Positions 9,474 through 34,710 of a stretch of 64,000 bases of DNA are shown piece by piece (the first letter of the stretch is position 1; each line of letters starts with the position of its first letter). The DNA is from a virus. A program made the position numbers and the translations under genes. The notes below the pieces were generated by a model that saw only the letters and a program-made list of their open reading frames with translations, did not search any database and was not told the DNA's origin. The DNA lies in the IMG/VR virus record IMGVR_UViG_3300045988_133728, positions 37,250-101,249 of that record. One strand, given 5' to 3'.

Positions 9474-9488
9474 GTATGAGAAGGAGAT
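9411..9488 (+). repeat. junction repeat J, copy 1 (3' end of the giant ORF plus the 5' end of paralog A)
   Basis: About 78 bp, about 94% identical to 10123-10200. Confidence 0.8.
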
Positions 9489-10054
9489 ATGAAGATGTTT
9501 CAGGTCTTGTTCAGTATCAGTTGAAGACCAATCAGCAGGGGAATATAGAGGTTTATGTTGATGACGGGTTTGTTGGAAACGTAAGTGAAGGAGTCTGTAA
9601 TTGGAAGGATGTTGAATACAAGAGTAAGGTTACTATATCTTTGAAAGGAGTCGAGAATAAGGCTAAAACTTCAAGTAAAAGAGTCGGTCCCTATTGTCAC
9701 ATTTATAGCATATTTGGAGGAAATGAATCTTATCATGAAGGTCCGGATAGTAATATAAAAAAGAGTCCGGTTACCACCTTTATAATGTATTGTTATAAAA
9801 ATGGGGATATTACAACTACCACCACTTATACTAAAAATTTATCTGGAACTCTTCATATAGGTAAAACACAATTGACTATCAATTACAAACAAAGTAAAAG
9901 TCAGTCTTTTTCTGGTGGTGATAAAGATTATGTAACATCCGTATCTGATTTCCCTTTTGTTACTGGTCCAGGAGATAATAGCGTTGAGTTTGAAGGAGAG
10001 GGAAGATTAATAGTTGAAACAAAGGCTTCGCATTATGAAATAGAAGTTTCATAA
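9476..10054 (+). CDS. MRRR[FY]-family small protein, paralog A (about 192 aa)
   Basis: The ATG lies 2 nt after the TGA of the giant ORF, consistent with translational coupling. The 5' end ATGAGAAGGAGATAT is shared with three other genes (10188, 28601, 29223). It has a Thr-run (TTTTTYTKN) and is beta-rich. Confidence 0.6.
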   Translation: MRRRYEDVSGLVQYQLKTNQQGNIEVYVDDGFVGNVSEGVCNWKDVEYKSKVTISLKGVENKAKTSSKRVGPYCHIYSIFGGNESYHEGPDSNIKKSPVTTFIMYCYKNGDITTTTTYTKNLSGTLHIGKTQLTINYKQSKSQSFSGGDKDYVTSVSDFPFVTGPGDNSVEFEGEGRLIVETKASHYEIEVS

Positions 10055-10092
10055 TTTCTATTTTTATAGTATTTTGTCTAAAATATTTATCA

Positions 10093-10121
10093 CTATGGGT
10101 GTCAAATGTCAGATAGAAAAA
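10093..10121 (+). repeat. repeat X, copy 1 (orphan copy of the first 27 nt of the 752-aa gene)
   Basis: CTATGGGTGTCAAATGTCAGATAGAAAAA is identical to 10743-10771 apart from one base before the ATG. It reads as the mini-ORF MGVKCQIEK followed by a stop. Confidence 0.8.
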
Positions 10122-10122
10122 T

Positions 10123-10200
10123 AAGAATCTCGTAGAAGGTTCTGATAATTCGGATTCGATAAATAAGTTAAACAAGGAGTGTTGAGTATGAGAAGGAGAT
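10123..10200 (+). repeat. junction repeat J, copy 2 (orphan copy of the giant-ORF 3' end fused to the start of paralog B)
   Basis: It reproduces the last roughly 20 codons of the 2219-aa ORF, including the stop and MRRR start context, although no giant ORF precedes it. Confidence 0.8.
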
Positions 10201-10718
10201 TTTTTAATGCTGCGGATAATTTCGTGGGAGGATGTTATAATAAGTTATCTAATGAGGATATAAAAAGGCTTGGAGGAAAAAGATCTTATGTATGTCAGTT
10301 TAATAAAATTCATATACATATAGGACCTGTATTAAAAGATAATGATTCCGAAGAAAGTTATATAATGTTTAATAGTGATTGGAATCATGGTGGTTATGAA
10401 TCTATAGTTTATCACCATAGTAATAATGGTATTTTTATATTAGGTGAAAATAAAATTGGTAATAGAGAAGATCATATACAGGATCTAACATATTGGTACG
10501 AATATGATCCAAACATTAATGAAAATTATTGTTATTGTTATTATGAAGCTGATAACAGCGGAAATGCTATTAAGTTGAGCCGTGAGTTTGGTGATGTTTG
10601 CACTGTTTTTAATATTCCCAGTTTGAAAGTTACTACTCTTCGTGATGGCGGTTTAAGTTTTCCAGAGATTTATATAGAAGGAGTTTGGGATCCGTTATTG
10701 TATAAGTCGGTTTTATAA
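10188..10718 (+). CDS. MRRR[FY]-family small protein, paralog B (about 176 aa)
   Basis: It starts with MRRRFF. It is preceded by a roughly 78-bp copy (10123-10200, about 94% identical) of the junction sequence at 9411-9488. The body is not similar to paralog A. Confidence 0.6.
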   Translation: MRRRFFNAADNFVGGCYNKLSNEDIKRLGGKRSYVCQFNKIHIHIGPVLKDNDSEESYIMFNSDWNHGGYESIVYHHSNNGIFILGENKIGNREDHIQDLTYWYEYDPNINENYCYCYYEADNSGNAIKLSREFGDVCTVFNIPSLKVTTLRDGGLSFPEIYIEGVWDPLLYKSVL

Positions 10719-10742
10719 TTAACTTTGCAAAAAAGTTAATCA

Positions 10743-10771
10743 TTATGGGTGTCAAATGTCAGATAGAAAAA
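10743..10771 (+). repeat. repeat X, copy 2 (authentic start of the 752-aa gene)
   Basis: See copy 1. Confidence 0.8.
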
Positions 10772-19124: not shown

Positions 19125-20000
19125 ATGGAATTAAAAGATTTTAAAGATGTGGTTAGAGTAATGACAAAAGAAGAGTTCGAATCAACAATCGAAGAAGATA
19201 TTAAATTCGTTGAGGGATTCAAGAATTTCTTAAAACATGATGATGCCACGAGGATAGTAGAGCATATCAAGTCTGTGTTAGAAGCATCAGTAGATTACTA
19301 CTATCCTAATCATCCTGAAGTAGAATTTGAAAAAGATTTTAATATACAATACGATGTCAATAATATCTTGAACAAATACGGCCACACCGAAATGGGTATG
19401 TATAAAATACAGCTCTATATAGAGAATATTTTGGGTAGTATTCAAAACAAGAAGCCTGTAGACGTGGGAGAAGTCTCTGACGGATACCACACTTTCAATG
19501 AATTGTATCGGTATCGCATGTTGTATAACGCTGCCTTCTTTAATCTATTAGCCAGAAGCGGACAGGTTGAAGTTTGCAAATCAAGGAGACACAGCGACGG
19601 AGAAAAATGCTTCGGTTCTGATGATTGGTTTATTGTGATGGCGATCCTGCCTACCGGTCAGGTATCTAATCACTATGAAAGCAAATACTGGGATTTGTTT
19701 GATGTTCCTGAAAGAGAAACCGCTTTCGAATACGATGGCCATACACCAAATGAAGCCGCCTACAGACTTGAAAAGTATCTCAAACTGCCTCGTCATGGCA
19801 TGACATTCGAAAAGGCTTTAGAACAGCTTAAATTAGGTCGTAAGATAAAAAGAATCGATTGGGGTAAAAAGTATATCTGTATGTTTATTGTAGAATCTGA
19901 CGTAAATATATTGATGGTAGATACAGGTCAAAAAGTAGCATCAAATTGGAATCCAACCGAACATGATATTATGTCTAATGACTGGGAGATTGCGGGATGA
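19125..20000 (+). CDS. hypothetical protein
   Basis: ORF of 291 aa. Confidence 0.55.
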   Translation: MELKDFKDVVRVMTKEEFESTIEEDIKFVEGFKNFLKHDDATRIVEHIKSVLEASVDYYYPNHPEVEFEKDFNIQYDVNNILNKYGHTEMGMYKIQLYIENILGSIQNKKPVDVGEVSDGYHTFNELYRYRMLYNAAFFNLLARSGQVEVCKSRRHSDGEKCFGSDDWFIVMAILPTGQVSNHYESKYWDLFDVPERETAFEYDGHTPNEAAYRLEKYLKLPRHGMTFEKALEQLKLGRKIKRIDWGKKYICMFIVESDVNILMVDTGQKVASNWNPTEHDIMSNDWEIAG

Positions 20001-20272
20001 GTTTGTTTGTATATTCAAAATGTGGCTGTATAGATAATACAGCCACGTCCTGTTACTGGGCTCTTGTGAGACCTTGTAAGAATCGTGTCTATGATGAGTC
20101 GCTAAAGGGATATGAGGGCAAGCCTCTTTGTTCTGAATGTGCCGCTATTGAATATAGTAGGGGAGGCGAAGTGGTGGTAGTTCCTGGAACGTGGCACGGT
20201 AAGTTCAAGAAAGAATGGCCTACTGAAGAAGAAAAGAAGCATATTGGTAAAAACGGTATTTTAAATTATTGA
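19997..20272 (+). CDS. Cys-rich small protein (putative zinc-binding)
   Basis: Its start overlaps the previous stop (ATGA). It has Cys pairs CGC...C...C...CSEC. Confidence 0.45.
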   Translation: MSLFVYSKCGCIDNTATSCYWALVRPCKNRVYDESLKGYEGKPLCSECAAIEYSRGGEVVVVPGTWHGKFKKEWPTEEEKKHIGKNGILNY

Positions 20273-20275
20273 TTT

Positions 20276-20581
20276 ATGTGTGATAAGGAAATTGTTGTAT
20301 GTGCAGCTATATGGGTTCAAGATCACAAGAACAAGCCTCACGGTCCAGTAAATATACCATCTGGAACCGTATTTTGTGGATTGAGACACTGTTCCATAAT
20401 ATCGCAACTTGCGGCATACGGAATAGCTCATAAAAACCGCAGTGTTCAAGGATTTTTGACAAGCAAGAATCGGTTTTTAACAAGAGAGGAAGCGTCTGAA
20501 CTTGTTAGAAACAATAATCAGGAGATGGTGGTAGATAGAAATGCCATTAGAGAACAGTTGTATTCAGAAGATTTGTATTAA
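20276..20581 (+). CDS. hypothetical protein
   Basis: ORF of 101 aa. Confidence 0.45.
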   Translation: MCDKEIVVCAAIWVQDHKNKPHGPVNIPSGTVFCGLRHCSIISQLAAYGIAHKNRSVQGFLTSKNRFLTREEASELVRNNNQEMVVDRNAIREQLYSEDLY

Positions 20582-20599
20582 CTAAAAAAATAAAACAAT

Positions 20600-20950
20600 A
20601 TGGGATTTATAATCAGAAAGTCAATATTTTATGATATGATGGACGGCAATCAGTTAGAGTATGAATTTGACAACAGGGATTTAGATCATATCACATTTAA
20701 AGGTGATGGTAAAGAATCTTTTTCATTTAACAGAGCACTTGTTGAAAATTTAATTGAGACATTTGAAACCATGCATGATACATATTCCGATAATTACAAG
20801 CTTAAGGTTTATACTGGTAATTGCATAATTCAATTGAGCGAAGATTCAAAGGACTTAAGTAAATCCTTTTTTGACGTATATGATAAAGATGAAATGAAAA
20901 TGATATACGCAATAAATATCAGTATCTTGAAAGAAATGTTTGTCATATGA
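20600..20950 (+). CDS. hypothetical protein
   Basis: ORF of 116 aa. Confidence 0.5.
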   Translation: MGFIIRKSIFYDMMDGNQLEYEFDNRDLDHITFKGDGKESFSFNRALVENLIETFETMHDTYSDNYKLKVYTGNCIIQLSEDSKDLSKSFFDVYDKDEMKMIYAINISILKEMFVI

Positions 20951-21264
20951 TCACCAAGCAAGATATACAAGCAGCAACATCGTATATTTTCCGAAGCAGT
21001 TTTGTCTCGGAGGACCAGGCAAGGAAAGCAATGGTAAGAGCCGGCAATAACGCTACCAAGAACCTCGTCAAGACCTTTAGAGGCAAGTTGTTCAAGAAAG
21101 CTTTTGAAAGAGCCCGTAGAGGAAAGGATATCAGTTTTTTTGAAAGACAGGAAAAAGAAAGTGGTTTCAACTTTCTTTACAATCCTAATAATGGTCGTAT
21201 GCAAAGCGGTCATATTATAATAGATGGAATTGATCTGTTTAAACAAATAATTCATGAAAGGTAA
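20947..21264 (+). CDS. basic small protein
   Basis: ORF of 105 aa, Lys/Arg-rich, overlapping the previous stop. Confidence 0.45.
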   Translation: MITKQDIQAATSYIFRSSFVSEDQARKAMVRAGNNATKNLVKTFRGKLFKKAFERARRGKDISFFERQEKESGFNFLYNPNNGRMQSGHIIIDGIDLFKQIIHER

Positions 21265-21424
21265 AAAAGTTGATATTCGTTTAGGTAGAGGTCTGGCGAA
21301 TCAGATTAAGATAAACAAAACCATTCCAGTGTCTCATAAACCAAAAGAAGAACGTCGAATGATGTTTATTTGTGGTGATGATATTGCTTCTCTTATAAAG
21401 CGGTTTGAAAATGAATCAAAGTAA
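21254..21424 (+). CDS. small ORF (56 aa) missed by the 60-aa cutoff
   Basis: It has an ATG start and overlaps the previous gene end. It ends 4 nt before the hairpin terminator at 21429. Confidence 0.3.
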   Translation: MKGKKVDIRLGRGLANQIKINKTIPVSHKPKEERRMMFICGDDIASLIKRFENESK

Positions 21425-21428
21425 TATA

Positions 21429-21461
21429 AAGTCGGGCATGTGTCTTGTCCGACTTTTTTTA
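21429..21461 (+). terminator. rho-independent terminator
   Basis: A 7-bp stem aagtcgg/ccgactt with a 13-nt loop is followed by T7. It argues that the 21405 ORF really starts later, for example at MARGYYW at 21473. Confidence 0.5.
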
Positions 21462-21472
21462 TATATTTGTGG

Positions 21473-21797
21473 CATGGCAAGAGGTTATTATTGGATACCG
21501 CAGACAGATGAAACGTTAAATGGCAGAAGCTATTACGTGGCTAAGATAGTAGGGGATATCACGTTTGATACTAAACGAAAAAGAATCGTATTTCAAGCTG
21601 ATAGGTATTTCCCTGTAGGATCTGTTTTCCATTTTACGCACAATTGCTTCAATTATATCATAACTTGCCGACTTCGTAAGCCGGGGCTTTGGTTTGAAGC
21701 CAGGAGAGAGGATTCGGGCCCTATTTGCCCTGAAGATATTGAGCGCTTTGAATCGGGAAGGTTTATACACCGAGATGGGTATATGCATTACATATAA
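21473..21797 (+). CDS. hypothetical protein
   Basis: The ORF is trimmed to the first ATG after the terminator. Confidence 0.4.
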
Positions 21798-21939
21798 GCT
21801 GAACTTGACGATTTTTCGTCAGATTATAATTTTTTTTCATATCATTTTTAAGCCATCAGACTGAGAAATTAGATGGCTTTATTTTTTATGATATGCTTGA
21901 TTTTTAACTACCTTTGTCTCATAACAAAAATGTTTTATC

Positions 21940-24900
21940 ATGGTATCAACGTGTATTATTAAAAGAGATAATAAAAAGAAAGTTGTTTCTGTCTCTACCA
22001 GATCAGGGGACAGGTCTATGTTGTTTGATAAAATAGCATCTGTTCCTCTTATGGAGAACAGGGAGCGGGCTACTACTGTTTTTAAAACCGTATTTTCCAA
22101 CAAGTTCTTAAAGGCTTTTGGCGACTGGAGAAAGAGAGTGCCTATCAACAAACAGGCTTATAATAAGGTAAAATCCAACATCGATCTTATCCCAGAAGCC
22201 TATAGAGAAAGGGTGCTGGATAAGGCTTCTAAGATGAGTAATCCTGTTCTTGTATCAAAATCAGATGCACCTTATGGGATTCAAGAATCAGGCTTCGGAT
22301 TCTATAGCCAAGATCTGGGTGATAATATTATGTTGGTGGATGCTATGATCCCATCAAGTATTTCCGTACCGGAAGAACCAGGAATAGACGCCGGGCAGTA
22401 TTTACAAGATGCTATATCTTCGGACTTCACTCCCGTATCTATGGTACAGGATAAGGGTGTTAATTATATGGTTATAAAAGACGGTCTTAAGATATTTAGC
22501 CCAGAAGAGCTACCACAGACAGATTCTAATCCTGTGGGTGTAACGTATCAGACCGGAGAGCCTCGTTTGTTTTTCATGAACGATCGTAGTCAATTATTTG
22601 AAGATTACGGAGAAGCTCTTCGCTCTGGCGGGAATGATATCAGAATAGGGTTCTTATCAGGCACCGTTCAAGAATCTACCGTGGATGGCGTGGCAGACAT
22701 TACTTACAAAGCTGGAAAGTATGTTCTTAATAATCCCAAATCTTTTATACCGGTCATGACCGCTTCTGCTTCTACTTCTTTATCAACAAAAGGTGGTATA
22801 ATTAACTACCTTATAAAGAAAGGTCTTTTGTCCGGATCTAAGATATTCGATCCTGAAACAAGAAGCTATTATCTTACAGGAGAAGGTCATACAGGACAAA
22901 TTAGACTTTTCAATTCAGCCTTATCATACACCGAGCTCCGTAATCATTTTGGTTCCGATGTTTCCATGAACGACCAAGGTATGATAACCATAAGCTCGTT
23001 GGATAACAGTAAGGTAACTATGAGACTCGCCACCGGAGGAACGGAAAGGATTAGTAGGAAACAGATAAAGAACGATCTTAAGTCAGGAAGATACAATGAA
23101 TTGGACGCCAAGTACGATCATTTTGATGCGCTTGTAGTTTCATTCATATTAGAAGATAACGATCTTTATGCTGATACTAAAGCTAAGATCGTATCAGATT
23201 ATAGCGGGCAGGAACGTGACCAACGAAATTCTATTGTCGAGATACTGAAAACGCTTGGCGTTAGTGTCATAGGTATGACCGACTATATAGAGAAGTACCA
23301 AACCAAATACGGGCACGAACCTTCTGCTAAGGCATTGGCGGATATTGCTAATAACGTAATAGCAGTTGGTGAAGATGCTACTTTATCTGATTTAGTAGAA
23401 GAAACAGCCCACTTTCTTGTAGAGGCATACAGAGATCAGAATGCTGTTGAGGCTGTTCTGCAAGATGTAGAAGGTACGGAAGAGTGGAACCAGTATGCAG
23501 GTCAGTATTATAATACATACGGTAAAGCGTATGAAGGAGCTGAGCTTGATAATGCTGTTAGGAGAGAAATTCTTGGAAAGATCCTCGCCAGGGAGATGCA
23601 GGCCGGCACAGCACAGGCGCCGGTAGAGCCCACCTCCTTCCTGGGGCGCGTCCGGCAGCTTTTCTCTGGAATCGTAAGCTGGCTTAAATCAGCTTTATCA
23701 ACCCAAAGACAAGATTTGAATAACGTTATTAAAAACATTCGTGATCTTGCCATTACTGACATAGATAAAGGATTTGACACCTCTCTGTTAAAGGATAATG
23801 ACTTTACATTATACTCCCTTTCTTCTATGAACAAGAACAAGTTTCTTGAGTCTAAGATCAGATCACTAAGAAAAACATTAAGAGACTTACGTCAGATAAG
23901 CTCTGATAGGGCTGTAACTACGTCTATGACCCTTGCGCAGCTTAAGACCATAGAAGATAAGATAAATAAGGTAGAGACCGAAATAGACAAGAATGAGATG
24001 GCGGCTGCCATGAACAGCATGATCTCCACAGCCGAAGCTCAGGTCAGATACTTAAGCAATGTGGTGAACACCATCCTTCATGGTGATACCAAAGACGGCA
24101 AGCTTCACTTCAATACCAATGATCGAAAGAACGTAGATATTATCAACAATCAGGTTCTTCCGATCATGAACGATCTTCGAGGATATATCCGTAACAGAAG
24201 TACCGAATTTGATGAACGTGAAAAGCAGGATTATACAAATAGGATCAACACCGTCATTGCCGACATCAATGGTATTCAGTCTGATATTAAATCAGTACAA
24301 GACCTTGATGAAAGTACGTTGCTTGATAAGTTAATGAACGAACTTCATGTGCCGGCAGATAAGGTAAAGAGAGTAAAAGAATTTTTCGACAAGGTTCAAC
24401 ACGATGTTTCTTGGATAAGTAGGTGGTTTGGTATATTAGAGCATTCTTCCAGTCCGTTCAATAACGCTCTTGGAGCTATGATTGCCAAAGACAATTACAA
24501 TGCGATGGTGAATGCCCAGCCCGCCATATCCGATTTCCTGGCATATGCGAAAAAGCATGGTTTTAACAAATCTGAATTTGAAAAACTGCTTCAGAAAGTA
24601 GACGGCAAAACTTCTAATTACCTTCGTAGTGCTCTTGATATGGCTAAATACGATCGTAATAAGAAGCTGGCGCAGATGCGAGCGTTTGCGACCGCCATGA
24701 ACATAGAGATATCAGAAGAAGAAATCAATGATGTGGTTGACAATAACCGTAATTACGTATTTAAAAGAGAAGTAGTTGACAAGGACGGAAATACGGTTAC
24801 TGAGAACGCTAAATTTAAACCGTCGTCCGATAGGGTTAATACCGATATTTTTACTATCGAACAGGAAAAAATCTATACGGAACAGATGGAAAAATGGGAT

Positions 24901-27900
24901 GCTGAAAATTCGGAACTGGAATTTAGCGAAAGTTATGCCACAAGAATGGAATCCATATACAAAAAGGCTGAAGAAGAATTAGGGCATCCGGTTTCTCAAA
25001 CAACCAAAGAATACCTTAATGCTCTTTCTCGGCAGAAGCGGATATTGAGGCAGCCTTTTATTGATAGCAATGGTAATTTTGATGAGGTTGCTTACTATAA
25101 GAGTAGTAACTACGAAGAAGAAGGACTGCTTCGTAAACAACGTAAGGAAGCAGCTTCAGAATACATATATGTAGGAACCAGGAGAGTGGAAAAAACTGGC
25201 GACCAACTTAAGATGGCCAAAGAAATACAAGCCATAAATGAAGTTTGGAGAAAAGAATCAAATAATGCCACTAATGCCGTATCAGAATCGTTTTTGCAAA
25301 AATTAAGAACGATTCAGAACGAGTCAGGAGGAGAAGCTGCGTTGAAGACACTTATGTTGGGAGGGCACCTGTCATTTAACGATCGGTTTTGGAATGACAT
25401 AGAATCAGAACAGTCGGCACGTACCGAATCAAATAACAAGGCTTCGTATCTTAAAATGGCACAAGACATCATTAGTTCTACGACAAGTGATAGAGATGCG
25501 ACTGACGTGGATTCGATTGTAAAAGATATAGAAAAAAATAAGGCTATTATCAAGGAAATAATCAGCAACAACCGTGACGTGGCTGATATCGGAGAAATCA
25601 ATGAAGCAACATTTACCTCATCTGAAAGAGATGCTTTTAGGGCCGCATCTGAAGCTATTGAAGCCGATTACGCTATTTTGATAGATTATGCTAAGATGGT
25701 GGGTCTTGAAGATATTGATAAGTACCTTACTAAAAGCAGTAAGGCTGAAAACGAAGTAAATCAGTCTTATTTAAATGCTCTTGCTGACTCCAAGGAAGTG
25801 GAATGGAAGTTCGTACAACGTCATACTACGGCGAAGAAAGCAAAAAGGATTCAGGCTTTAAGGGATAAGCTGTTTAAGGCTGCTGATAACCGATATCTGT
25901 TTACCGTATCTGAAACCAACTACCTGTCAGAAAAGCTTGGAATAAGCAAAGAATTAGACGGTAGAGATTTCAGGAATGCTGTTAATACTAAGATGGCCAG
26001 CTTATTTTTAAATAATACAAGAGAAGAGGGTATAGAAGCTGACATAAAAGCAGGTATAGAAGAAGCTAATGCGATCGTTAATGAATTTGCCAGGAGCCAG
26101 GTCTTTTCGTACTATAAACGCATGGCACCTACCGGATATACGGCTATGATTGGTAAAATAGGCCGCGGTGAGATAGATGTGGCGCAGATGGTTAAAGACG
26201 TACAGAACGGAACATCCACCCAAGATTATGGCATGGACATATCATACCTGTCTTTCGACCCTGCAAGGGCATGGGTGGCTGAATCTGAAGCCGAAAATAG
26301 CGGTCGTAACCCTGATTATGTAAAAGATCATGGGTATGGTCATCGTATGCCCAAGAAAAGCCTGTATCGTGATGAATCGTATTTCAATGACTTTGGTATC
26401 AAGTATGATGCTGACGGTAATGAGGTTGCTACTAAAAACGTAGAGCAATGGAATATGATTCAAAAACTTAAGGAAATAAAAAGACAATCCCTTTCCTTAT
26501 ACAAAGAGCAGAGCCCGAACCTGTATGCTATTCCACAGATATCCAAACAAGATATAGAACGTGTGGAAGGATTGGGTATCAGCCTTAAAAGTACGGTCAG
26601 GAACTTCGTATCCGACTTATGTCTTGATCGCGTAGATGACTCCCTGTATGGTAAAACACGCCAGGGTGAGGTATATGATCCGGAAGATAGGGTTCGGTCC
26701 ATACCTAAATACTACATATATGAATTAGAGAACCAAGATGACGTATCTCATGATTTTGGTTACTCTTATTCGATGCTTATGATGCAGTCATCGTTATACA
26801 ACGAAAAGCAGAAGTCTATAGAGCTCGCTCAAGGACTGGGGCAGATGTTACTGAATAAACAATTTGAAGGTGGTAAAAAGGCTGAAGCAACCCAAGCATA
26901 TCAGATGTTCAGGGACTTCTTCAACGATCATTATTATGGCATTAGGATGAACACCAAAAAACTTACGGTGAACATCGGAGGATATACGGTAGACCTTACA
27001 AGAATTATGATGGCTGTTGAAAGATTTATGTCGGTCATGAACTTGGCACTGTCTCCGTTTGTGGCAGCTACCGGCGCCTTAACAGGTCATATCAACCTCA
27101 TCATGGAATCTGCCGTAGGACAGTATATAAGCAAAGACTCCCTTAAATACGCATCGGCTGAATTTTCACGCCTTGCTCCATCTTGTATAGCAGAAACCGG
27201 AGACATAGATAGGAAAAGCAAATTATATGTCATAGGTGAGAGAATGGGGATATTCAATATCCGAAATCGTATGTATGGTGCCGGATACAATAGAGTGGCC
27301 AGGACCTTAATGCGTTCACCTATGTATGCTTTTATGGAAATCCTGAACTACCCTCTTGATCCGCAGGTTATGATTGCTACTATGGACAATGTTCGTTATT
27401 ACAAAGGTCGGTTCTACACGTTCCAAGATTTCAAGATGGAAAAAGAACGCAATAAAGAACAGAGTACCATAAAAAGAGAATGGAATGCATTAAAAGATCA
27501 TACTTTATGGAGTATGGTAGATGTCGTGGATGGGAAGGTGGTTGTAAAGCCCAGATCGGGTGTTACTGTTGAGGAAGTTGAAACCCAGATGGCTATAACC
27601 AGAAATCAAGTTCGTAGCTTGTCGCAGATATGTAACGGATCTTTGAATGAAGAAAACCGAACTGCTGCATCGCGCAACTGGATAGCCAGGTTCATGACCG
27701 CCCACCGAGGATGGTTGGTGCTGGCGGCTCAACGTCTGTGGAAAAGACGTGGCTTCAATTTCCAGACAATGCAAGAAGAGGAAGGGTTGTCAATTACGTT
27801 AAAGAATATGATAGCCAAAACATTTAGCTTAGCTTCCGAGTCTGGTATGAAAAACATCATAGATGCCTGGAACGAAAATAAAGACAATATGAATGAGGTA

Positions 27901-28386
27901 GAGAAAACCAATATAAAACGTCTCAGTGTCTATGCCGGCACGTTCCTTATCATGCAAGCCGTATCCATGCTTCTTGCCGGATGGCGTGATGATGATGAAA
28001 ACGAAGAAAGTTGGCTTACTCAATTTGGATCCTATGTCGGATTCAGAACCATAAACGAAATAGCTTCACAGATGCCGTTTATTATGGAGCTTAATGTGGT
28101 AGATATCATTAACGATCCGTTTGTTATGGGGCGGAAGTTGAAGGATCTTACTGATCTTAGGAATTACTCACTTGATAAAGTAACATCCGGCACATACAAA
28201 GGAGAGTCTAAGTTATTTAGGCAACTCGCCAAACAGACGTTTATCAAACAATGGTATAATATCAAGACGCCGGAAGACATAGCGCGCGCCTATAATTGGT
28301 GGCAGCAGACAAACAACAAGTCAATGATGTTCTTCATCGGCGCTACTCCTGATTCGGAAGGGGACGATGACGTTAGTTACAAATAG
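21940..28386 (+). CDS. giant protein (2148 aa), second putative virion cargo or internal protein
   Basis: A 6.4 kb uninterrupted ORF with extensive coiled-coil segments. No DxDGD, Walker or other catalytic motif was recognised by eye. An MRRRF-family gene follows it, as for the first giant ORF. Confidence 0.75.
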   Translation: MVSTCIIKRDNKKKVVSVSTRSGDRSMLFDKIASVPLMENRERATTVFKTVFSNKFLKAFGDWRKRVPINKQAYNKVKSNIDLIPEAYRERVLDKASKMSNPVLVSKSDAPYGIQESGFGFYSQDLGDNIMLVDAMIPSSISVPEEPGIDAGQYLQDAISSDFTPVSMVQDKGVNYMVIKDGLKIFSPEELPQTDSNPVGVTYQTGEPRLFFMNDRSQLFEDYGEALRSGGNDIRIGFLSGTVQESTVDGVADITYKAGKYVLNNPKSFIPVMTASASTSLSTKGGIINYLIKKGLLSGSKIFDPETRSYYLTGEGHTGQIRLFNSALSYTELRNHFGSDVSMNDQGMITISSLDNSKVTMRLATGGTERISRKQIKNDLKSGRYNELDAKYDHFDALVVSFILEDNDLYADTKAKIVSDYSGQERDQRNSIVEILKTLGVSVIGMTDYIEKYQTKYGHEPSAKALADIANNVIAVGEDATLSDLVEETAHFLVEAYRDQNAVEAVLQDVEGTEEWNQYAGQYYNTYGKAYEGAELDNAVRREILGKILAREMQAGTAQAPVEPTSFLGRVRQLFSGIVSWLKSALSTQRQDLNNVIKNIRDLAITDIDKGFDTSLLKDNDFTLYSLSSMNKNKFLESKIRSLRKTLRDLRQISSDRAVTTSMTLAQLKTIEDKINKVETEIDKNEMAAAMNSMISTAEAQVRYLSNVVNTILHGDTKDGKLHFNTNDRKNVDIINNQVLPIMNDLRGYIRNRSTEFDEREKQDYTNRINTVIADINGIQSDIKSVQDLDESTLLDKLMNELHVPADKVKRVKEFFDKVQHDVSWISRWFGILEHSSSPFNNALGAMIAKDNYNAMVNAQPAISDFLAYAKKHGFNKSEFEKLLQKVDGKTSNYLRSALDMAKYDRNKKLAQMRAFATAMNIEISEEEINDVVDNNRNYVFKREVVDKDGNTVTENAKFKPSSDRVNTDIFTIEQEKIYTEQMEKWDAENSELEFSESYATRMESIYKKAEEELGHPVSQTTKEYLNALSRQKRILRQPFIDSNGNFDEVAYYKSSNYEEEGLLRKQRKEAASEYIYVGTRRVEKTGDQLKMAKEIQAINEVWRKESNNATNAVSESFLQKLRTIQNESGGEAALKTLMLGGHLSFNDRFWNDIESEQSARTESNNKASYLKMAQDIISSTTSDRDATDVDSIVKDIEKNKAIIKEIISNNRDVADIGEINEATFTSSERDAFRAASEAIEADYAILIDYAKMVGLEDIDKYLTKSSKAENEVNQSYLNALADSKEVEWKFVQRHTTAKKAKRIQALRDKLFKAADNRYLFTVSETNYLSEKLGISKELDGRDFRNAVNTKMASLFLNNTREEGIEADIKAGIEEANAIVNEFARSQVFSYYKRMAPTGYTAMIGKIGRGEIDVAQMVKDVQNGTSTQDYGMDISYLSFDPARAWVAESEAENSGRNPDYVKDHGYGHRMPKKSLYRDESYFNDFGIKYDADGNEVATKNVEQWNMIQKLKEIKRQSLSLYKEQSPNLYAIPQISKQDIERVEGLGISLKSTVRNFVSDLCLDRVDDSLYGKTRQGEVYDPEDRVRSIPKYYIYELENQDDVSHDFGYSYSMLMMQSSLYNEKQKSIELAQGLGQMLLNKQFEGGKKAEATQAYQMFRDFFNDHYYGIRMNTKKLTVNIGGYTVDLTRIMMAVERFMSVMNLALSPFVAATGALTGHINLIMESAVGQYISKDSLKYASAEFSRLAPSCIAETGDIDRKSKLYVIGERMGIFNIRNRMYGAGYNRVARTLMRSPMYAFMEILNYPLDPQVMIATMDNVRYYKGRFYTFQDFKMEKERNKEQSTIKREWNALKDHTLWSMVDVVDGKVVVKPRSGVTVEEVETQMAITRNQVRSLSQICNGSLNEENRTAASRNWIARFMTAHRGWLVLAAQRLWKRRGFNFQTMQEEEGLSITLKNMIAKTFSLASESGMKNIIDAWNENKDNMNEVEKTNIKRLSVYAGTFLIMQAVSMLLAGWRDDDENEESWLTQFGSYVGFRTINEIASQMPFIMELNVVDIINDPFVMGRKLKDLTDLRNYSLDKVTSGTYKGESKLFRQLAKQTFIKQWYNIKTPEDIARAYNWWQQTNNKSMMFFIGATPDSEGDDDVSYK

Positions 28387-28600
28387 ACGAAGAATATCAG
28401 ACTTGCATTGTTTTTGTATGATTCCAATATGTTATATTAGCATCGTCAAAGAGTAGATTGTACGTTTTTTTGTTCTTACTTGAAAGATTATGTAGGTTTA
28501 ATTTTTTCTGAAATTGTTTTCTTACCGGTTCTCAGTCAGAGATGATAGAGAACCGGTTTCTTTTATGTTGTCAATTATTGCTATCTTGCAAACAAAAATC

Positions 28601-29218
28601 ATGAGACGAAGATTTCAAATAGGGATGGGGGTAAATCCCTCGCTTATAATCAATAAAGGCATATACATCCAACATGTAGATGGAGGATTATATACAAAAG
28701 AAAATTGGTCTAATAAAGGATATTCCAATGATCTATGCAATGGAATAGCTCTTGTAGATAAAGTGTGTTTTGTTATAGCCACCGAATATATTGGCACATT
28801 TAGTTGGGGTAAGGATGGAAGAGTAGACAATGTATTTGCACAAAATAGTTCTTATATGGAGACCGTTAAAAAGGATTATTGGGGGCGTGAAAATCAGAAT
28901 GCGTATCTTGAATATGATACCAGTAATGAAAATTACGCTTTTAATAAAGCTAATAGCTATTTATTTAAAAATGGTCAAAATGGATATGTAGGTGGCGCCG
29001 GAGAGTTTTTTTTGATATCATTGTATGCTAATGAAATAAACGAATGCCTTTTAATGGTAGGAGGTACGATAATGAGTAATAAAATGTGGACATCCACTCA
29101 ATCTACACAATTTACCTATTCGTGGTATTATGATATAAACATCCAAGGAGATCATTTGGATACAAGTATAAGGAGTAATCCACGTTATGTCCGCCCCTTT
29201 ACCGAATTAATTTTATGA
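28601..29218 (+). CDS. MRRR[FY]-family small protein, paralog C
   Basis: The ATG begins ATGAGACGAAGATTT (MRRRFQ). The tool ORF extends upstream to 28514, but the shared 5' signature supports a 28601 start. Confidence 0.55.
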   Translation: MRRRFQIGMGVNPSLIINKGIYIQHVDGGLYTKENWSNKGYSNDLCNGIALVDKVCFVIATEYIGTFSWGKDGRVDNVFAQNSSYMETVKKDYWGRENQNAYLEYDTSNENYAFNKANSYLFKNGQNGYVGGAGEFFLISLYANEINECLLMVGGTIMSNKMWTSTQSTQFTYSWYYDINIQGDHLDTSIRSNPRYVRPFTELIL

Positions 29219-29222
29219 AATT

Positions 29223-29958
29223 ATGAGAAGAAGATTTGAAAATAATGCTAAACTATATGAGTATAAGATAGTTAGCGATTGTATAGGGGGGGGTAATCGT
29301 AGAAGGAAAGAAAGTAGGCACCATTCCACAGGGCGGGCAATTTATCTTTCTGTCTAAAAAAGAACGGCTGGATTCCATAAGTGTCCAAGGCGGTGTTCCA
29401 ATGGAAGATAGGCAAGAGATCGATAGTCAGGTTGATACGACAGAGGAATTGCTTGAACAGGATTCGGTGGTTCTTGCTATTGCTTTAAAAACCTCTCCTT
29501 ATTATGGATTTAGAGTAAGTGTGATAGCACCTGATGAGTTTACGCTAAGAACAACCAATAGGATTAATAGAACCTTTTTAATAACAAGCTTTACTCCACC
29601 TGCTGCTATATACGGTGTAAACTTTGGTGATCCTATTGTCCTTAATTATGATAGTTACCAATATGAGATGCCAGATCTTGTAATTGATGGACCTCATGAT
29701 AGAATAGTTAGGGTAGATCCTAATCTTACTTGGGTTGTAAGATGTACAGACGCCGACTTTACACCTTTGCCATATCCAGAATCATGGTCTGGCCAAGGTT
29801 TAAATTCTATGTTCTTATCAGAAATGAAACGTCTTGCTCCTGGTGATCATCATGTATCATATACAGCTTATATTAATTTGGACTTGATAGATGATGGCGG
29901 AAGTAAAGTTCATACTGAATATCTGATATTAGAAAAAACATTTAATTTTACGATATGA
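29223..29958 (+). CDS. MRRR[FY]-family paralog D, split by a G8 tract (29223-29357 in frame 0 and 29287-29958 in frame 1)
   Basis: It begins ATGAGAAGAAGATTTGAA (MRRRFE). Eight G's at 29286-29293 are followed by an open +1 frame running without stops into the 29401 ORF (GGVIVEGKKVGTIPQGG...MEDRQEID). A 1-nt loss in the tract would fuse both into one protein of about 245 aa. Confidence 0.45.
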
Positions 29959-30004
29959 CAACAATCCCTAACCGTACGCCTATTGTATGGTTGGGGATTG
30001 TTGT
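29958..30004. terminator. long hairpin at the convergence point of the rightward and leftward gene blocks (putative bidirectional terminator)
   Basis: acaacaatccctaacc / ggttggggattgttgt form a stem of about 16 bp with two G-U pairs around a 15-nt loop. It lies between the last + strand gene (end 29958) and the first - strand gene (end 30048). Confidence 0.5.
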
Positions 30005-30047
30005 AGTTACCATCTTTTCTTGTATAAGCAGAACATGAAATAAGTTT

Positions 30048-30536
30048 CTAAGCATTAACTTCATGACCTTCCCTATCTGTGAAAACTAAACCAATACCTT
30101 CTATGATATGTCCTACTACAGGAGCTTTGTCAAATTCCTCCTTCGTAGCCCAAGTAGCATTATCAGGCATCAGATCCTTGAATGCGTCCGAAACATCACC
30201 TTGACACCAGCAGTTATTTGATGTAACAATGCCTTTCCCTTCGATATTGACATACATTTTTCTTCCACCACATCCAAGGCTGTTCCATCCGCTCGGTACG
30301 TTTTCCACCATAGGCTTAAGCACCCAGCTTACACCGTCTATCCTAACCCATCCAGGATCGTCTTTGTGCTTGTCGTACAAGTTTTGCCAAAAAGAACATT
30401 CGTAGCACCATCCCCTGTCTTCCATAACAGTTCTTATCTCACACCTTTCAAATCCATCTGCATCCATCGTGTGCGGAGAATGAGGCCGGTGAGGGGTGCC
30501 ACATTTTGGACATACGAGTTTTAAATTATTTTCCAT
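30048..30536 (-). CDS. hypothetical Cys/His-containing protein
   Basis: ORF of 162 aa with CPKCG...H...C...C near the N-terminus. Confidence 0.5.
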   Translation of the reverse strand: MENNLKLVCPKCGTPHRPHSPHTMDADGFERCEIRTVMEDRGWCYECSFWQNLYDKHKDDPGWVRIDGVSWVLKPMVENVPSGWNSLGCGGRKMYVNIEGKGIVTSNNCWCQGDVSDAFKDLMPDNATWATKEEFDKAPVVGHIIEGIGLVFTDREGHEVNA

Positions 30537-30537
30537 A

Positions 30538-30771
30538 TTATTTTACTTTCACGATCTTAATAGAATCTCCTATATTGTATTCCCCTTGGTATCCAACGAA
30601 TTTTATAAATCTATTACTGTTAAATATTGAAAATCTTCCGTCTTTACCATAATACATTATACATCCACCATCTAAAGGATGTAGATCATATATAACCCAT
30701 CCGTCATTAACCCGAATATCATGCGAACATGATGATAACACAAGTGCCATCAATAAAACAAAATACCTCAT
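30538..30771 (-). CDS. small lipoprotein
   Basis: Signal peptide plus lipobox MRYFVLLMALVLSSC|S, with a mature part of about 60 aa. Confidence 0.5.
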   Translation of the reverse strand: MRYFVLLMALVLSSCSHDIRVNDGWVIYDLHPLDGGCIMYYGKDGRFSIFNSNRFIKFVGYQGEYNIGDSIKIVKVK

Positions 30772-30778
30772 ATTATTT

Positions 30779-30970
30779 TCAGCATAAAAATTTGTAACCT
30801 GGTTTTACGGCCTCTGCTTCTTCTCTCGTATCAAACATTAAGGTAGTGACAGCTCCTATGCCTTCACAAACGTAAGATACTTTCACCCACCACCTAAAAA
30901 TCCCAGAGCCGTAATCATCATAATACGGCTCGGAAAGAACTTCTTCTACATACCCATCCAAATAATTCAT
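30779..30970 (-). CDS. hypothetical protein
   Basis: ORF of 63 aa in the packed operon. Confidence 0.4.
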   Translation of the reverse strand: MNYLDGYVEEVLSEPYYDDYGSGIFRWWVKVSYVCEGIGAVTTLMFDTREEAEAVKPGYKFLC

Positions 30971-31689
30971 GATCGTTCCTCCTTGTTTTTAGATTCTGCC
31001 TCCTCGAGTATGCTGATCACCTTGTCAACAATATCCGAATCAGACATTTTCTCAATAAAAACATCCATTGCCTTAGTTATGTCATTGGCTTCTTTTTCTT
31101 CAAGAGCTATTTCTCCACCGGTAATAGCATCAGACAATGATGTAGATAAGTGTCTTATCTTATCAATGCTCATAAACGTAAATGGATTACCACCTTGACC
31201 ACCACCCATTTCTTTCATAATCTGATATCCACCTGAAATAAGTCTGCCGGATGTCAGAGCCAAGGAAGACACGATAAGGGCCAGGACCGCCGCTTCCGTC
31301 CGCTCCTCGGACACGCCCTTCGACCACACGGCTGCCCTTATAGCGCCGGCCAGGTCGTCTATGTATGGCATGAGGCAATCTTCCATCGCTTGTGTTATAT
31401 CAGCTATAACCTCACTACGCTCTTTATTTATGTAGTAGATAGAAGCATTATACCTCTTTATCTCCTTATCCATATCATTTAAAAAGCGCTTGATGTTGTG
31501 CTTATACATAGGACTGCCTTTAATTACCTCCTTCAGTTTAATAATGTAATTATAAGCCTGGTCGTTTACAAATAACGTCATGGTCTCAACCGTTGAATGA
31601 AGCGTGTTAAGGCTGTTAAGAATCTTATCGAAATTGTTTATCAAATAAGCTTTTCTGGCTTTTGCTGCATAGTTAATCATCGTATTCAA
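30967..31689 (-). CDS. hypothetical protein
   Basis: ORF of 240 aa with overlapping start and stop with its neighbours. Confidence 0.55.
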   Translation of the reverse strand: MNTMINYAAKARKAYLINNFDKILNSLNTLHSTVETMTLFVNDQAYNYIIKLKEVIKGSPMYKHNIKRFLNDMDKEIKRYNASIYYINKERSEVIADITQAMEDCLMPYIDDLAGAIRAAVWSKGVSEERTEAAVLALIVSSLALTSGRLISGGYQIMKEMGGGQGGNPFTFMSIDKIRHLSTSLSDAITGGEIALEEKEANDITKAMDVFIEKMSDSDIVDKVISILEEAESKNKEERS

Positions 31690-32194
31690 ATTTTAGATTT
31701 TCAAGTTCGTGTATTTGTAACTTAAGAGACTTAATTAAATCCGTTCTCTGTTCCTCTGCATATTTCAAAGCTTCTTCTTTATTTTTAAAAGCTTGATACC
31801 CTATCGTATAAGGAGCGAACCGATTAGGGGTGTCGGCTAATAAAGTACCATCATAATCTTCTATTTTAGCTTTTACTTTTCTTATCTTACCATCTTGCAG
31901 ACATGTATCTGTAATCCACACAAATGTATCATACATTTCTTCATATAATTCATACCATTCCGGCTTAGGAAATCTTAATGTGAATCTAATTTCGGTATCT
32001 TTTTCTAAGACATTAATATCATACGCCTCCGGCCACAGTTCTTTTATGCTGTCTTCATCTTCAGCATACGCTACCAATACAAATGAATTACTGGATTCTG
32101 CGCTACACCAATATGGATATTTTATAGGCCATTTGACTGGACGGTAATCATTGTCACAGTCATCCTTTCTAATGTAAAATCTTGCTCTAATCAT
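31673..32194 (-). CDS. hypothetical protein
   Basis: ORF of 173 aa. Confidence 0.55.
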   Translation of the reverse strand: MIRARFYIRKDDCDNDYRPVKWPIKYPYWCSAESSNSFVLVAYAEDEDSIKELWPEAYDINVLEKDTEIRFTLRFPKPEWYELYEEMYDTFVWITDTCLQDGKIRKVKAKIEDYDGTLLADTPNRFAPYTIGYQAFKNKEEALKYAEEQRTDLIKSLKLQIHELENLKFEYDD

Positions 32195-32195
32195 G

Positions 32196-32504
32196 TTATT
32201 CTACTTTTTTGATTTCGCTCAAATCGTCTTCATACACCAAATAAGATCCTCTTCCAGGTCTTCCTTCTTTATTAGCTTTCTGGATTGTAAATATAACTGT
32301 TCCAGTATTCGTGATTTGCACGTTCTTAAAGAAACCAACAATAGGCTCTTTCGAACGTTTGTAAAGAACACTCACTTTATCTCCCTTCTTTAACCCATAA
32401 ACAGAATCGAAATATTCCTTTTTAATTCTTTCAATATTACTTCTATGTTTGTTCATTGCATCAAACTCGTCGTCTAACAGTTGAATCATTTGTTCTTTTG
32501 TCAT
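32196..32504 (-). CDS. hypothetical protein
   Basis: ORF of 102 aa. Confidence 0.5.
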   Translation of the reverse strand: MTKEQMIQLLDDEFDAMNKHRSNIERIKKEYFDSVYGLKKGDKVSVLYKRSKEPIVGFFKNVQITNTGTVIFTIQKANKEGRPGRGSYLVYEDDLSEIKKVE

Positions 32505-33244
32505 TTCTTTTCCTCCTTATTTAATGGTATTAATCCTTTTCCGTGTTTATCATACCACAACATAGTTATCACATTCCATGCGACCGCAGCTAAATGGTGT
32601 ACGTTCGTCTCTTTATCCATTCTCTCTCCTTTCAGGTACGCCATCATGTGTCGAAACGTCGCCGCACGGTACCGTTCAAAGCCGTCGTCAAGATCCTGCC
32701 AAGTATTAGGCCCATATTTCTTGGCTCCGGCATGATAGACTTTTACAATGTCCTCAATTTCTTCCATCGGAAGCAAATCCCATCGTAGTTTATCATCAAT
32801 GATGTCATTTTTCACTGATTTCCCTTCTTTTTCACTATTGCCTTTTTCTGAACTAACAGGTTCTAATAATTCTAAGGGCATACAAGTCTTTCCCCCTTCA
32901 TAATATATGACAGCCATAACATCTACATTATAGACATCTTCCGCCAACTCAACTATAGCTCCTCCAGGAACAATGTTATCTTTAAAAGAATAATCCTTTT
33001 TAACAAAAAGCAATTCTCCCTCTTTGAAAAGGATATTATTACTCTTCAGTATATATTCAATTGGTATATCGATTTCCATACGACCTTCATATGACAGCGT
33101 AGCCTCCTTATCTCCCTTTTTGATATCTTTTTCACACACAACTTTAAGTCCTTTTTGGGCTACTAATGTTTTATAAGCATAAACATCTTTGTTAATAACC
33201 ACGCTTTCCCCCTTTGGGATAATAATATCATCCATCTTTTCCAT
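32501..33244 (-). CDS. protein with a C-terminal dATP/dGTP diphosphohydrolase-like (MazG-associated N-terminal type) domain
   Basis: The C-terminal half LRWDLLPMEEIEDIVKVYHAGAKKYGPNTWQDL...ERYRAATFRHMMAYLKGERMDKETNVHHLAAVAWNVITMLWY matches the remembered RxDLIP...KYG.NW...HL.A.AW pattern of that phage domain family. The N-terminal 130 aa are a separate beta-rich domain. Confidence 0.5.
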   Translation of the reverse strand: MEKMDDIIIPKGESVVINKDVYAYKTLVAQKGLKVVCEKDIKKGDKEATLSYEGRMEIDIPIEYILKSNNILFKEGELLFVKKDYSFKDNIVPGGAIVELAEDVYNVDVMAVIYYEGGKTCMPLELLEPVSSEKGNSEKEGKSVKNDIIDDKLRWDLLPMEEIEDIVKVYHAGAKKYGPNTWQDLDDGFERYRAATFRHMMAYLKGERMDKETNVHHLAAVAWNVITMLWYDKHGKGLIPLNKEEKK

Positions 33245-33288
33245 TGTTTTATCGTCGTTTTAATTGTTTGATATAATAATATAGTCCA

Positions 33289-33630
33289 TCATTTTTCTTT
33301 TGCAAAGCGATCAAATTCTTCTCCGCTCATAACAATGCGGTTAATAATAATTATGCCGTTATCGCTATAATCGTCATTTTTAACTCCCATATCATCAAGC
33401 TCCTTCTTTAATTCTTCAAATGTGGGACCGGTCTTGCTTTTAAAAAATAAAGTAGCATGTACAATCTTTTCGTTGTTTAGTTTTGCTCTCACGGTATAGA
33501 CATATCCTTTTTCCTCTTCATCCTTTTTGTTGACACCATCAAGGATGCTATTTATCATGTTCTTGTCCTCACGTGATAGGTTAGATATGGCTATTCTGCC
33601 CTTCAACCTAAATATTTCGTTTTCGTTCAT
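33289..33630 (-). CDS. hypothetical protein
   Basis: ORF of 113 aa. Confidence 0.5.
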   Translation of the reverse strand: MNENEIFRLKGRIAISNLSREDKNMINSILDGVNKKDEEEKGYVYTVRAKLNNEKIVHATLFFKSKTGPTFEELKKELDDMGVKNDDYSDNGIIIINRIVMSGEEFDRFAKEK

Positions 33631-33914
33631 GACTTTCTGTTTTTATTGTTTTCAAAATATTGTCTTACAGCTTCTATAGCCTTATCATCATCAAAAGCCT
33701 CTTCAAACTCCGTATAGAACCTATCTCGTTCCATGCAGAACGTGTTTTTCCCTTCTGGTATAGGACGGAATACAACCACCCTCTCTTCAGCGTGATTGGT
33801 TCCTATTATGTTATTATCTAAGACAATAGAATACCTTTTTGAACTTTTGTTGATAACAACATCATGCTGAAGACCATACAATTTAAGTATTTCCCTTAAT
33901 TCACTTGTTTCCAT
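33627..33914 (-). CDS. hypothetical protein
   Basis: ORF of 95 aa, overlapping by 4 nt. Confidence 0.45.
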   Translation of the reverse strand: METSELREILKLYGLQHDVVINKSSKRYSIVLDNNIIGTNHAEERVVVFRPIPEGKNTFCMERDRFYTEFEEAFDDDKAIEAVRQYFENNKNRKS

Positions 33915-33918
33915 TATT

Positions 33919-34710
33919 TTAAGATTTTATATTTTTAGAAGACACTGCTCCCGATCCCCACTTTTTCTTATATATAGTCCCCATCATGTTTATTAAATCG
34001 GAAAAAGAAGATATGGTTCCCATTTCTATACAAAATGCAAGATTGGATTGAAGCATTTCAAGTTCTTTTAACTGCTCTTGAGTTGCTCTGTTTCTTATCA
34101 TGCTCTCATGTTCGTTAAAAACGATCCAATTGAGGCCTTTAGCCATTCTTGTATAATCTGCATCAGGAAATCTTGATATAGCCCTTGATAGGACATTATA
34201 TTTATCTCCTGCCTCTATCCTATTTAAAATAAGTTTGTCCGTCAACCATGTTACTACTTCAGCATACAGCATAGGGTTAAGCTCCATAGCTACAAGAACC
34301 CATATATAAGGATTGCACATCGTTCTCCTATTCTCTCCTCTTCCCATAGTTTTATAAGCCCCCATCTTTTTCATCACTTTTATAAGTGATTCTTTTTCAA
34401 CAGATTGGATAAAACCAGGAAATCCTGCTTCTATTGTATATCCTTGTTTTTCAAGGATATAGTATATTCGTTCAGCACTTTCTTTGTTGGACAGAATGTT
34501 TTCTATTCTCTTTTCATTCCATCCCATTTCTATCCTTTTTCTCGTATAAGCCTCTTGTAGGTCTGTTAAGGACATAAATGATGTTTTGGTGTCTTGTTTA
34601 ATTATAACACCAAACAGTTCCCGATCTTTCGATACCATTGTAACATTTGTTTTCATGAAATATAACACTAAAAAAAATATCATGATGCAAATATATGCAT
34701 CATTATACAT
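33919..34710 (-). CDS. hypothetical protein (possible DNA-binding)
   Basis: ORF of 263 aa. The N-terminal hydrophobic stretch is probably before the real start. Confidence 0.5.
   Translation of the reverse strand: MYNDAYICIMIFFLVLYFMKTNVTMVSKDRELFGVIIKQDTKTSFMSLTDLQEAYTRKRIEMGWNEKRIENILSNKESAERIYYILEKQGYTIEAGFPGFIQSVEKESLIKVMKKMGAYKTMGRGENRRTMCNPYIWVLVAMELNPMLYAEVVTWLTDKLILNRIEAGDKYNVLSRAISRFPDADYTRMAKGLNWIVFNEHESMIRNRATQEQLKELEMLQSNLAFCIEMGTISSFSDLINMMGTIYKKKWGSGAVSSKNIKS

Follow-up and report, generated by a model that had tools for sequence, protein, structure and literature searches.

A length-variable poly-G tract, probably a contingency locus, in a cassette gene of an apparently crAss-like gut phage

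INTRODUCTION

Gene D, at positions 29223-29958 of the phage DNA studied here, contains near its 5′ end a run of G's that is 8, 9, 10 or 11 nt long in related phages, and the gene is therefore most likely flipped on and off by replication slippage. The length of the run differs between near-identical genomes, the alleles that it puts out of frame are otherwise intact, and the gene occupies a slot for exchangeable cassettes. We think it probable that D, whose product is a fast-evolving, Ig-like and presumably virion-associated cassette protein of a crAss-like phage, is a contingency locus based on a hypermutable poly-G run. Alleles whose tract leaves the gene in frame are called ON in what follows, and those out of frame OFF.

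The DNA analysed (the window) is 64,000 nt of one strand of the IMG/VR virus record IMGVR_UViG_3300045988_133728, positions 37,250-101,249. A preliminary description of the window had noted the split gene and offered phase variation, a programmed frameshift or a sequencing error as its cause. Phase variation is the best supported of these, tract length being unequal between near-identical genomes and the OFF alleles otherwise intact.

DATA AND METHODS

Related loci were collected in two ways: 80 were fetched by protein similarity and another 80 were anchored on the helicase gene. Tract lengths were read from the consensus assemblies of these loci, and pN/pS was calculated from codon alignments. 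In-frame stops were counted allele by allele; single-site scoring gave five, of which four were codons differing at more than one position. Homopolymer controls in core genes were A, T and C runs.

RESULTS

The G tract and the reading frames of D

Window positions 29280-29297 read TGTATAGGGGGGGGTAAT, in which the G8 run is 29286-29293 on the plus strand. The tract provides codons 22-24 (Gly-Gly-Gly) of the 245-codon gene together with the opening G of the Val codon that follows; it uses GGG, the rarest Gly codon (13%). Frame 0, from the ATG at 29223, meets a premature TAA at 29355-29357 and gives a product of 44 aa. The +1 frame has a TAG at 29284-29286 that overlaps the first G of the run; from there on it is open for 223 codons (29287-29958, encoding GGVIVEGKK…NFTI) to the stop at 29956-29958, passing through the ATG at 29401 where a mechanically called 185-aa ORF starts. 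The preliminary description had all of this right as to the run, the frame-0 stop and the TAG before the run. Its 44-aa fragment has the size claimed. Only about the first 23 of these codons are part of the real protein, and NRRRKESRHHSTGRAIYLSV, which follows them, comes from reading through out of frame. It had also stated that loss of one G fuses the two ORFs. The computed edit does so, giving a 244-aa protein, but the natural intact form is G10, reached by adding two G's to give 245 aa, and pure G7 is absent among 88 unique alleles of relatives. The window allele is thus two steps from the common ON state.

Contingency loci carry a homopolymer tract of about 7 nt or more within coding sequence or a short way upstream of it, and the G8 of D is such a tract. 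No other G or C run in the 64 kb reaches 7 nt. Shuffled windows had a mean of 0.48 G8 runs, and 38 of 100 shuffles had at least one; since chance could well produce one G8, its significance rests on the comparative data and not on the presence of the run.

The tract is preceded by a constant 5′ segment (29223-29285, plus strand; codons 1-21, MRRRFENNAKLYEYKIVSDCI), which is near-identical in DNA between allele families that are only 40% identical downstream. The first seven codons of this segment also occur in an unrelated cassette of the phage csAssE-Sib. Reassignment of TAG to a sense codon was considered and rejected: there is no tRNA gene in the window, and the standard code leaves two ORFs as long as 2148 and 2219 aa uninterrupted.

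Intact homologues and the true start

The fused D protein has 214 homologues, mostly of 245 aa, with 100% coverage at 78-96% identity. Straight across the tract junction their sequence runs …CIGGGVIVEGKK… or …YEYKIVSNCIGGGVIVEGKK…, where the intact pattern is MRRRF…CIGGG/VIVEGKK (the slash marks the junction). The proposal that one gene has been split by the run is upheld by these 245-aa proteins, which cover both halves. The internal ATG at 29401-29403 (plus strand) does not encode a conserved Met, the homologues having M, I, T or K there. Homologues that read intact through the junction show the start at 29401 to be a by-product of the frameshift; the suspicion that this annotated start was wrong was justified, and the true start is 29223.

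The same kind of error is found in public databases. Versions of D with 221, 226 and 227 aa begin MYRGG… or MYVNN…, from TTG or GTG starts that gene callers placed in out-of-frame alleles, and UniProt A0A8S5MGK9 (221 aa) is one such truncated version. The truncated public entries (185, 221, 226 and 227 aa) are annotation artefacts of OFF alleles.

Genome context

Two gene blocks, one on each strand, converge near position 30,000 of the window. The sole GenBank phage match is csAssE-Sib, a human-gut phage of 151 kb, which matches 90% of window positions 20000-34000 with 94% identity; a literature search found no paper on it. Its record annotates the upstream block as tail, muzzle and other structural proteins. 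We infer that the window phage is a crAss-like phage of the human gut, and that D is the final gene of the late structural block.

The gene for a giant 2148-aa virion structural protein (21940-28386, plus strand), so assigned by its match to phrog_37651 (virion structural protein, E = 3e-79) and by the csAssE-Sib annotation, lies directly upstream of a pair of cassette genes. The first of the pair is gene C (28601-29218, plus strand; 205 aa, MRRRFQIGMGV…), intact in the window, and the second is D (29223-29958, plus strand), present as an OFF allele. A further pair, A (9476-10054) and B (10188-10718), also on the plus strand, is directly 3′ of another giant ORF (2814-9473, 2219 aa). All four genes (starts at 9476, 10188, 28601 and 29223) begin with MRRR followed by F or Y; A and B have no G tract in the window. 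An 81-nt direct repeat (95% identical; 9408-9488 and 10120-10200) comprises the 3′ end of the 2219-aa ORF and the ATGAGAAGGAGAT start of A and B, and a 67-nt repeat (78%; 10061-10127 and 10711-10777) comprises the 5′ end of a 752-aa gene. Taken together, the two repeats resemble the traces of a tandem duplication from which cassette B arose; at the A/B position of csAssE-Sib there is a single cassette.

Directly 3′ of the D stop, where the gene blocks converge, is an inverted repeat (29958-30004) with 20-nt arms, 90% complementary, and a 7-nt loop. It is conserved in csAssE-Sib and is probably a bidirectional transcription stop. A consensus scan after D yielded no T-run terminator, and the inverted repeat is without a T-run.

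Tract length among relatives

The tract is G8, G9, G10, G11 or interrupted in the relatives. Of the 88 unique alleles, 38 have an in-frame tract and the other 50 an out-of-frame one. The 160 loci hold 72 unique D alleles, 31 ON and 41 OFF, and the helicase-anchored sample, which was not chosen on D, has 17 ON and 22 OFF. In 25 viral contigs with identical flanks of 15 and 13 nt, the tract is G8 in 4, G9 in 11 and G10 in 10. In the VIVEGKK lineage, to which the window belongs, G10 is ON and the two shorter tracts, G9 and G8, are OFF; the ON length of the CYVNNEL lineage is G9, with G8 again OFF. A more distant allele family (P0123-type, 40% identical) has the same 5′ constant DNA and tract as D, and in it G10 is ON in five contigs, an interrupted tract is ON in two, G9 is OFF in nine and G11 is OFF in one.

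Frame-toggling length polymorphism among close relatives, a second mark of contingency loci, is thus found in D. The closest relative of the window (L052) mismatches it at 2 positions in 3160 nt of flank, yet has G9 where the window has G8. Among pairs of loci more than 99.5% identical, tract length is unequal in 29-40%, and this fraction reaches a plateau near 70% at about 1% divergence. The D tract changes far faster than its flanks. Long G or C runs are almost confined to D and C: the 1.62 Mb of related loci contain 39 runs of at least 8 nt, of which 35 are the D tract, three are an analogous tract in gene C and one is elsewhere.

Tract variation and assembly error

Tract lengths read from assemblies could mislead if the true tract always had the in-frame length (G10 in the window lineage) and G8 and G9 arose from polymerase stutter during amplification or from mis-assembly of a long G run. 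Several observations fit such an origin. OFF lengths are almost always one or two below the ON length, as contraction-biased library or assembly errors would give, and short or interrupted runs are nearly all ON. Assemblers struggle at the site, at least one viral contig (L076, IMGVR_UViG_3300045988_109117; 100 kb) ending inside the poly-G tract. C-OFF co-occurs weakly with D-OFF (OR 2.2, p = 0.15, non-significant), which could hint at assembly quality.

Control homopolymers in core genes of the same contigs argue against this origin; they are A, T and C runs, the core genes having no G run of at least 8 nt. They are invariant: A7 in 63 of 63 contigs, T7 in 18 of 18, T8 in 7 of 7, C5 in 61 of 61, and A6 at three sites in 63 of 63, 64 of 64 and 65 of 65. 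Intergenic A8 and T8 runs, in contrast, range from 7 to 9 in the same contigs. With coding runs fixed and intergenic runs variable, length variation appears mostly to track selective constraint and not random assembly error; random assembly error is blind to coding constraint, so most of the tract-length variation is probably real. About 57% of the independent consensus assemblies are out of frame, which is too high for consensus errors, given general Illumina error rates. Gene C varies at a short G5 (G4, G6, G8 and G9) and at a T8, lengths that are not error-prone, and truncated forms of D come from several independent sources (NCBI, ENA, Logan and UniProt). The invariant core-gene homopolymers speak against the sequencing error considered in the preliminary description, and an artefactual origin of the D polymorphism as a whole seems to us improbable.

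Two further observations concern assembly and run length. Some protein fragments, including P0152 and P0133, stop at residue 24 or 48; assembly breaks are expected at a tract that is heterogeneous or hard to sequence. As an exception to the constancy of coding runs outside C and D, an A8 at 34670-34677 (about codons 11-13 of the minus-strand ORF 33919-34710) is 6, 7 or 8 nt long in eight flank-matched contigs; either the true start is downstream of this run or the run is another variable tract.

Constraint on out-of-frame alleles

In a contingency locus the OFF alleles are otherwise intact, whereas in a pseudogene inactivating lesions pile up at the neutral rate. The OFF alleles of D are of the first kind. 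The 221-223 codons downstream of the tract are open in 39 of 41 of them. In the post-tract region of 68 unique alleles a single 1-nt indel, located in an A run, breaks the frame, as against three in-frame indels; one 17-nt insertion is at the extreme 3′ end. In-frame stops number one real case where 8.8 are expected under neutrality (275 variant site-bases), about 9-fold fewer (P ~0.001). Lesions are thus not accumulating in D at the neutral rate.

Tracts that are interrupted, with a longest run of 7 nt or less, are ON in seven alleles and OFF in one; those with runs of at least 8 nt are ON in 31 and OFF in 49 (Fisher p = 0.019). The ratio of seven ON to one OFF among interrupted alleles is also predicted if OFF lengths are artefacts.

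The open frame is kept in a protein whose residues change freely. The pN/pS of D is 0.69-0.98 and that of C is 0.71, compared with 0.029 in the tail of the giant ORF and 0.19 in the downstream gene. The amino-acid sequence of D is almost unconstrained or diversifying, while its frame stays open; values near 1 are compatible with weak constraint in place of diversifying selection. The pS of D is 0.054, against 0.135 in the adjacent giant structural gene (26886-28386), and its non-synonymous diversity is about 11 times higher. The low pS and high non-synonymous diversity suggest that the D cassette has recently spread among diverged phage backbones.

D, and C with it, might instead be dispensable and on the way to being lost, the homopolymer being simply the most mutable site and the OFF alleles young pseudogenes. 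The pN/pS of 0.7-1.0 in C and D would agree with this, as would the OFF majority among D alleles, the frequent loss of D from its slot or replacement by other cassettes, the extra lesions in a few alleles (L078, L089 and L097) and the frequent breakage of gene C, sometimes outside its tracts. Set against these are the 9-fold depletion of nonsense mutations, the near absence of frame-breaking indels outside the tract where in-frame ones are present, the seven-to-one excess of ON among locked (interrupted) alleles, and the retention of a long pure G tract together with an intact ORF in allele families down to 40% identity. On this balance we regard decay as an unlikely account of the OFF alleles.

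Recoding

An open downstream frame in OFF alleles is also what would be expected if these alleles were still expressed. Full-length D could be made from out-of-frame templates by transcriptional slippage or ribosomal frameshifting, in which case DNA length would matter little. Long homopolymers are known slippage sites. In the G9 allele frame 0 reads GGG GGG GGG TAA, placing a stop directly after the slippery run; a -1 P-site slip at this stop restores G9 alleles, and G8 needs a +1 slip.

Programmed frameshift sites have a slippery sequence that is conserved at fixed length with a required shift, and a stimulatory RNA structure. The D tract varies in length, and no shift is required in about 43% of alleles. 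The 107 nt after the tract have a minimum free energy of -25.2 kcal/mol, with no significant RNA structure (z = -1.03; folding was equal or better in 29 of 200 shuffles). Interrupted tracts, which are not slippery, are in frame, so that the in-frame DNA state is what selection preserves. An obligatory form of the programmed frameshift put forward in the preliminary description is unlikely on the grounds of variable length, shift-free ON alleles and lack of RNA structure. Recoding might occur at D as a leak, yet it is not required, and there is in our estimate only a small chance that it makes tract length unimportant.

The D protein and its cassette slot

The D protein consists of a constant N-terminal module of about 60 aa (MRRRF…YEYKIVSxCIGGG…GGVP) and a variable all-beta C-terminal part that ends in an Ig-like domain. 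An exhaustive HMMER search found intact D homologues down to 32-56% identity, and found the N-terminal module also in proteins with unrelated C-termini. A 405-aa protein (P0145) has the module (YTYTVxSNCxGGxVY…ISGGVP) twice, at residues 1-63 and about 227-290, and this doubling suggests an independently folding, reusable domain. The C-terminal motif of D is repeated in giant Bacteroidota surface proteins with Ig-like, SprB and T9SS sorting domains. In fold this C-terminal domain is Ig-like, its structural matches being generic; D has no sequence or specific fold homology to a known fibre or receptor-binding protein. Searches of Pfam and PHROGs with fused D, A, B, C and the csAssE-Sib cassette assigned no family, and a PDB sequence search with a D profile and both giant ORFs gave no match. 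A Tat or lipoprotein signal in MRRRF…C was rejected, no hydrophobic segment following the arginines.

As a candidate receptor-binding protein, D has a place in the late structural block, an Ig-like C-terminus, a cassette architecture and a high pN/pS, and it has no homology to any known one. With low to moderate confidence, we assign its product to the virion, in a binding or decoration role.

The D slot of csAssE-Sib is occupied by a 149-aa gene, unrelated to D apart from a common MRRRFEN, from which we conclude that the D locus is a cassette slot. In the helicase-anchored loci L107-L186, the region matching 28600-29960 has differing cassettes in phages with helicases 97-99% identical. Besides D types with the G tract, these are a tract-free MRRRFENIKTVAG type of 149 aa, a D-like NCIGGTIFVD type, likewise tract-free and intact in 3 of 3 cases, and, in slot 1, an MRRRFLSYDLF type of 153 aa.

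Gene C has tracts of its own, in the window a G5 at 28627-28631 and a T8 at 29006-29013. In relatives the gene is in frame with G5 or G8 and frameshifted with G4, G6 or G9; at the T run, T8 keeps the frame and T7 and T9 break it. Gene C is broken in about 30 of 75 related loci. The states of C and D are statistically independent (p = 0.15), and all four ON/OFF combinations are seen. The two genes have in common the motif ATAGGG…GGGGGTAA. Two loci (L062:3001-3060 and L065:2973-3030) are C-D fusions, in which the N-terminus of C (MRRRFQIGMG) is joined to the VIVEGKK of D and the body of C is deleted, and in another (L106:2379-2440) gene C has acquired a G10 tract like that of D. The fusions and the acquired G10 indicate that the tract region also acts as a recombination joint.

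DISCUSSION

Proposed switching of D

We favour slippage at a contingency locus as the explanation of the D polymorphism. Slipped-strand mispairing during replication of the phage DNA would add or remove G's in the tract, and D would toggle between an in-frame ON and an out-of-frame OFF state, presumably reversibly within a population. In the window lineage G10 would be the ON state, giving the 245-aa protein, and G9 and G8 would be OFF; the G8 allele of the window would be OFF and would yield only the 44-aa peptide. The product of the ON state is a putative binding or decoration protein, putatively carried on the virion. Its stochastic expression would diversify the phage population, a form of bet-hedging.

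A wider reading proposes a combinatorial system in crAss-like gut phages: short arrays of MRRRF-type cassettes behind giant virion genes, with a constant anchor and interchangeable Ig-like modules, and, at the joint of the two, a G tract that would be an independent switch for each cassette and a site of microhomology for fusion and exchange, of which the C-D fusions in L062 and L065 would be examples. This is speculative and we hold it to be rather doubtful. If true, it would give the phage a phase-variable surface repertoire mirroring the phase-variable capsules of its Bacteroidales hosts, and could help to explain long-term coexistence of phage and host in the gut.

CrAss-like phages are among the most abundant viruses of the human gut and persist there beside hosts that phase-vary their surfaces. 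The D switch, if real, would mean that stochastic ON/OFF variation is employed by the phages as well, which has been documented experimentally for only a few cultured phages (Fletchervirus, T2/T4). In the literature searched we found no report of homopolymer phase variation in crAss-like or gut phages. Tract length can be read directly from existing metagenome reads, which would allow switching to be followed within a person over time.

Comparison with known systems

Modular tail-fibre and receptor-binding proteins have a conserved N-terminal anchor and swappable C-terminal domains. D is like them in that its N-terminus is conserved, in both DNA and protein, and its C-terminal part is swapped between near-identical genomes; fast amino-acid evolution and an Ig-like C-terminal domain are further likenesses. 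It is unlike them in that D-type proteins are small (150-245 aa) and without homology to known fibres, and in that its attachment to the virion is putative.

Homopolymers within ORFs of T2, T4 and other phages undergo reversible frameshifts by polymerase slippage, which have been read as bet-hedging (Gomez, Barrick & Waters 2025, bioRxiv 10.1101/2025.10.21.683753). D likewise has a homopolymer inside a phage ORF. The T2/T4 loci, unlike D, are mostly A/T runs of at least 6 nt in coliphages, with frequencies known from deep sequencing, and homopolymer repeats are under-represented in tail-fibre genes (same source). D has a long G tract, of a kind confined to accessory cassette genes, and the evidence for it comes from metagenome assemblies.

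Bacterial poly-G/C contingency loci are found in Campylobacter, Neisseria and Haemophilus (e.g. PMC8355987, PMC5084427) and encode surface-interaction functions. Like them, D has a G tract of 8-10 nt near the 5′ end of the ORF, ON and OFF alleles among close relatives and an ORF that is otherwise intact. D differs in being carried by a virus and copied by a phage-encoded replication system.

The phage case nearest in form is that of Campylobacter Fletchervirus, whose receptor-binding-protein genes contain hypermutable G runs 7-11 nt long (Sørensen et al. 2021, Cell Rep 35:109214, as cited in PMC10877375 and bioRxiv 10.1101/2025.10.21.683753). On that cited account, D is alike in having, within the gene of a lytic phage, a poly-G of similar length, with frame switching that creates subpopulations in Fletchervirus and would do so for D, and in facing a host that itself phase-varies its surface, Campylobacter there and presumably Bacteroidales here. 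The phage lineage (crAss-like, human gut) and the D protein are unrelated to those of Fletchervirus; switching of D is deduced from between-sample comparisons, and D is a candidate receptor-binding protein only. What D adds, to Fletchervirus as so described and to known contingency loci, is the position of its tract, which lies where the constant N-terminal module meets the exchangeable C-terminal cassettes.
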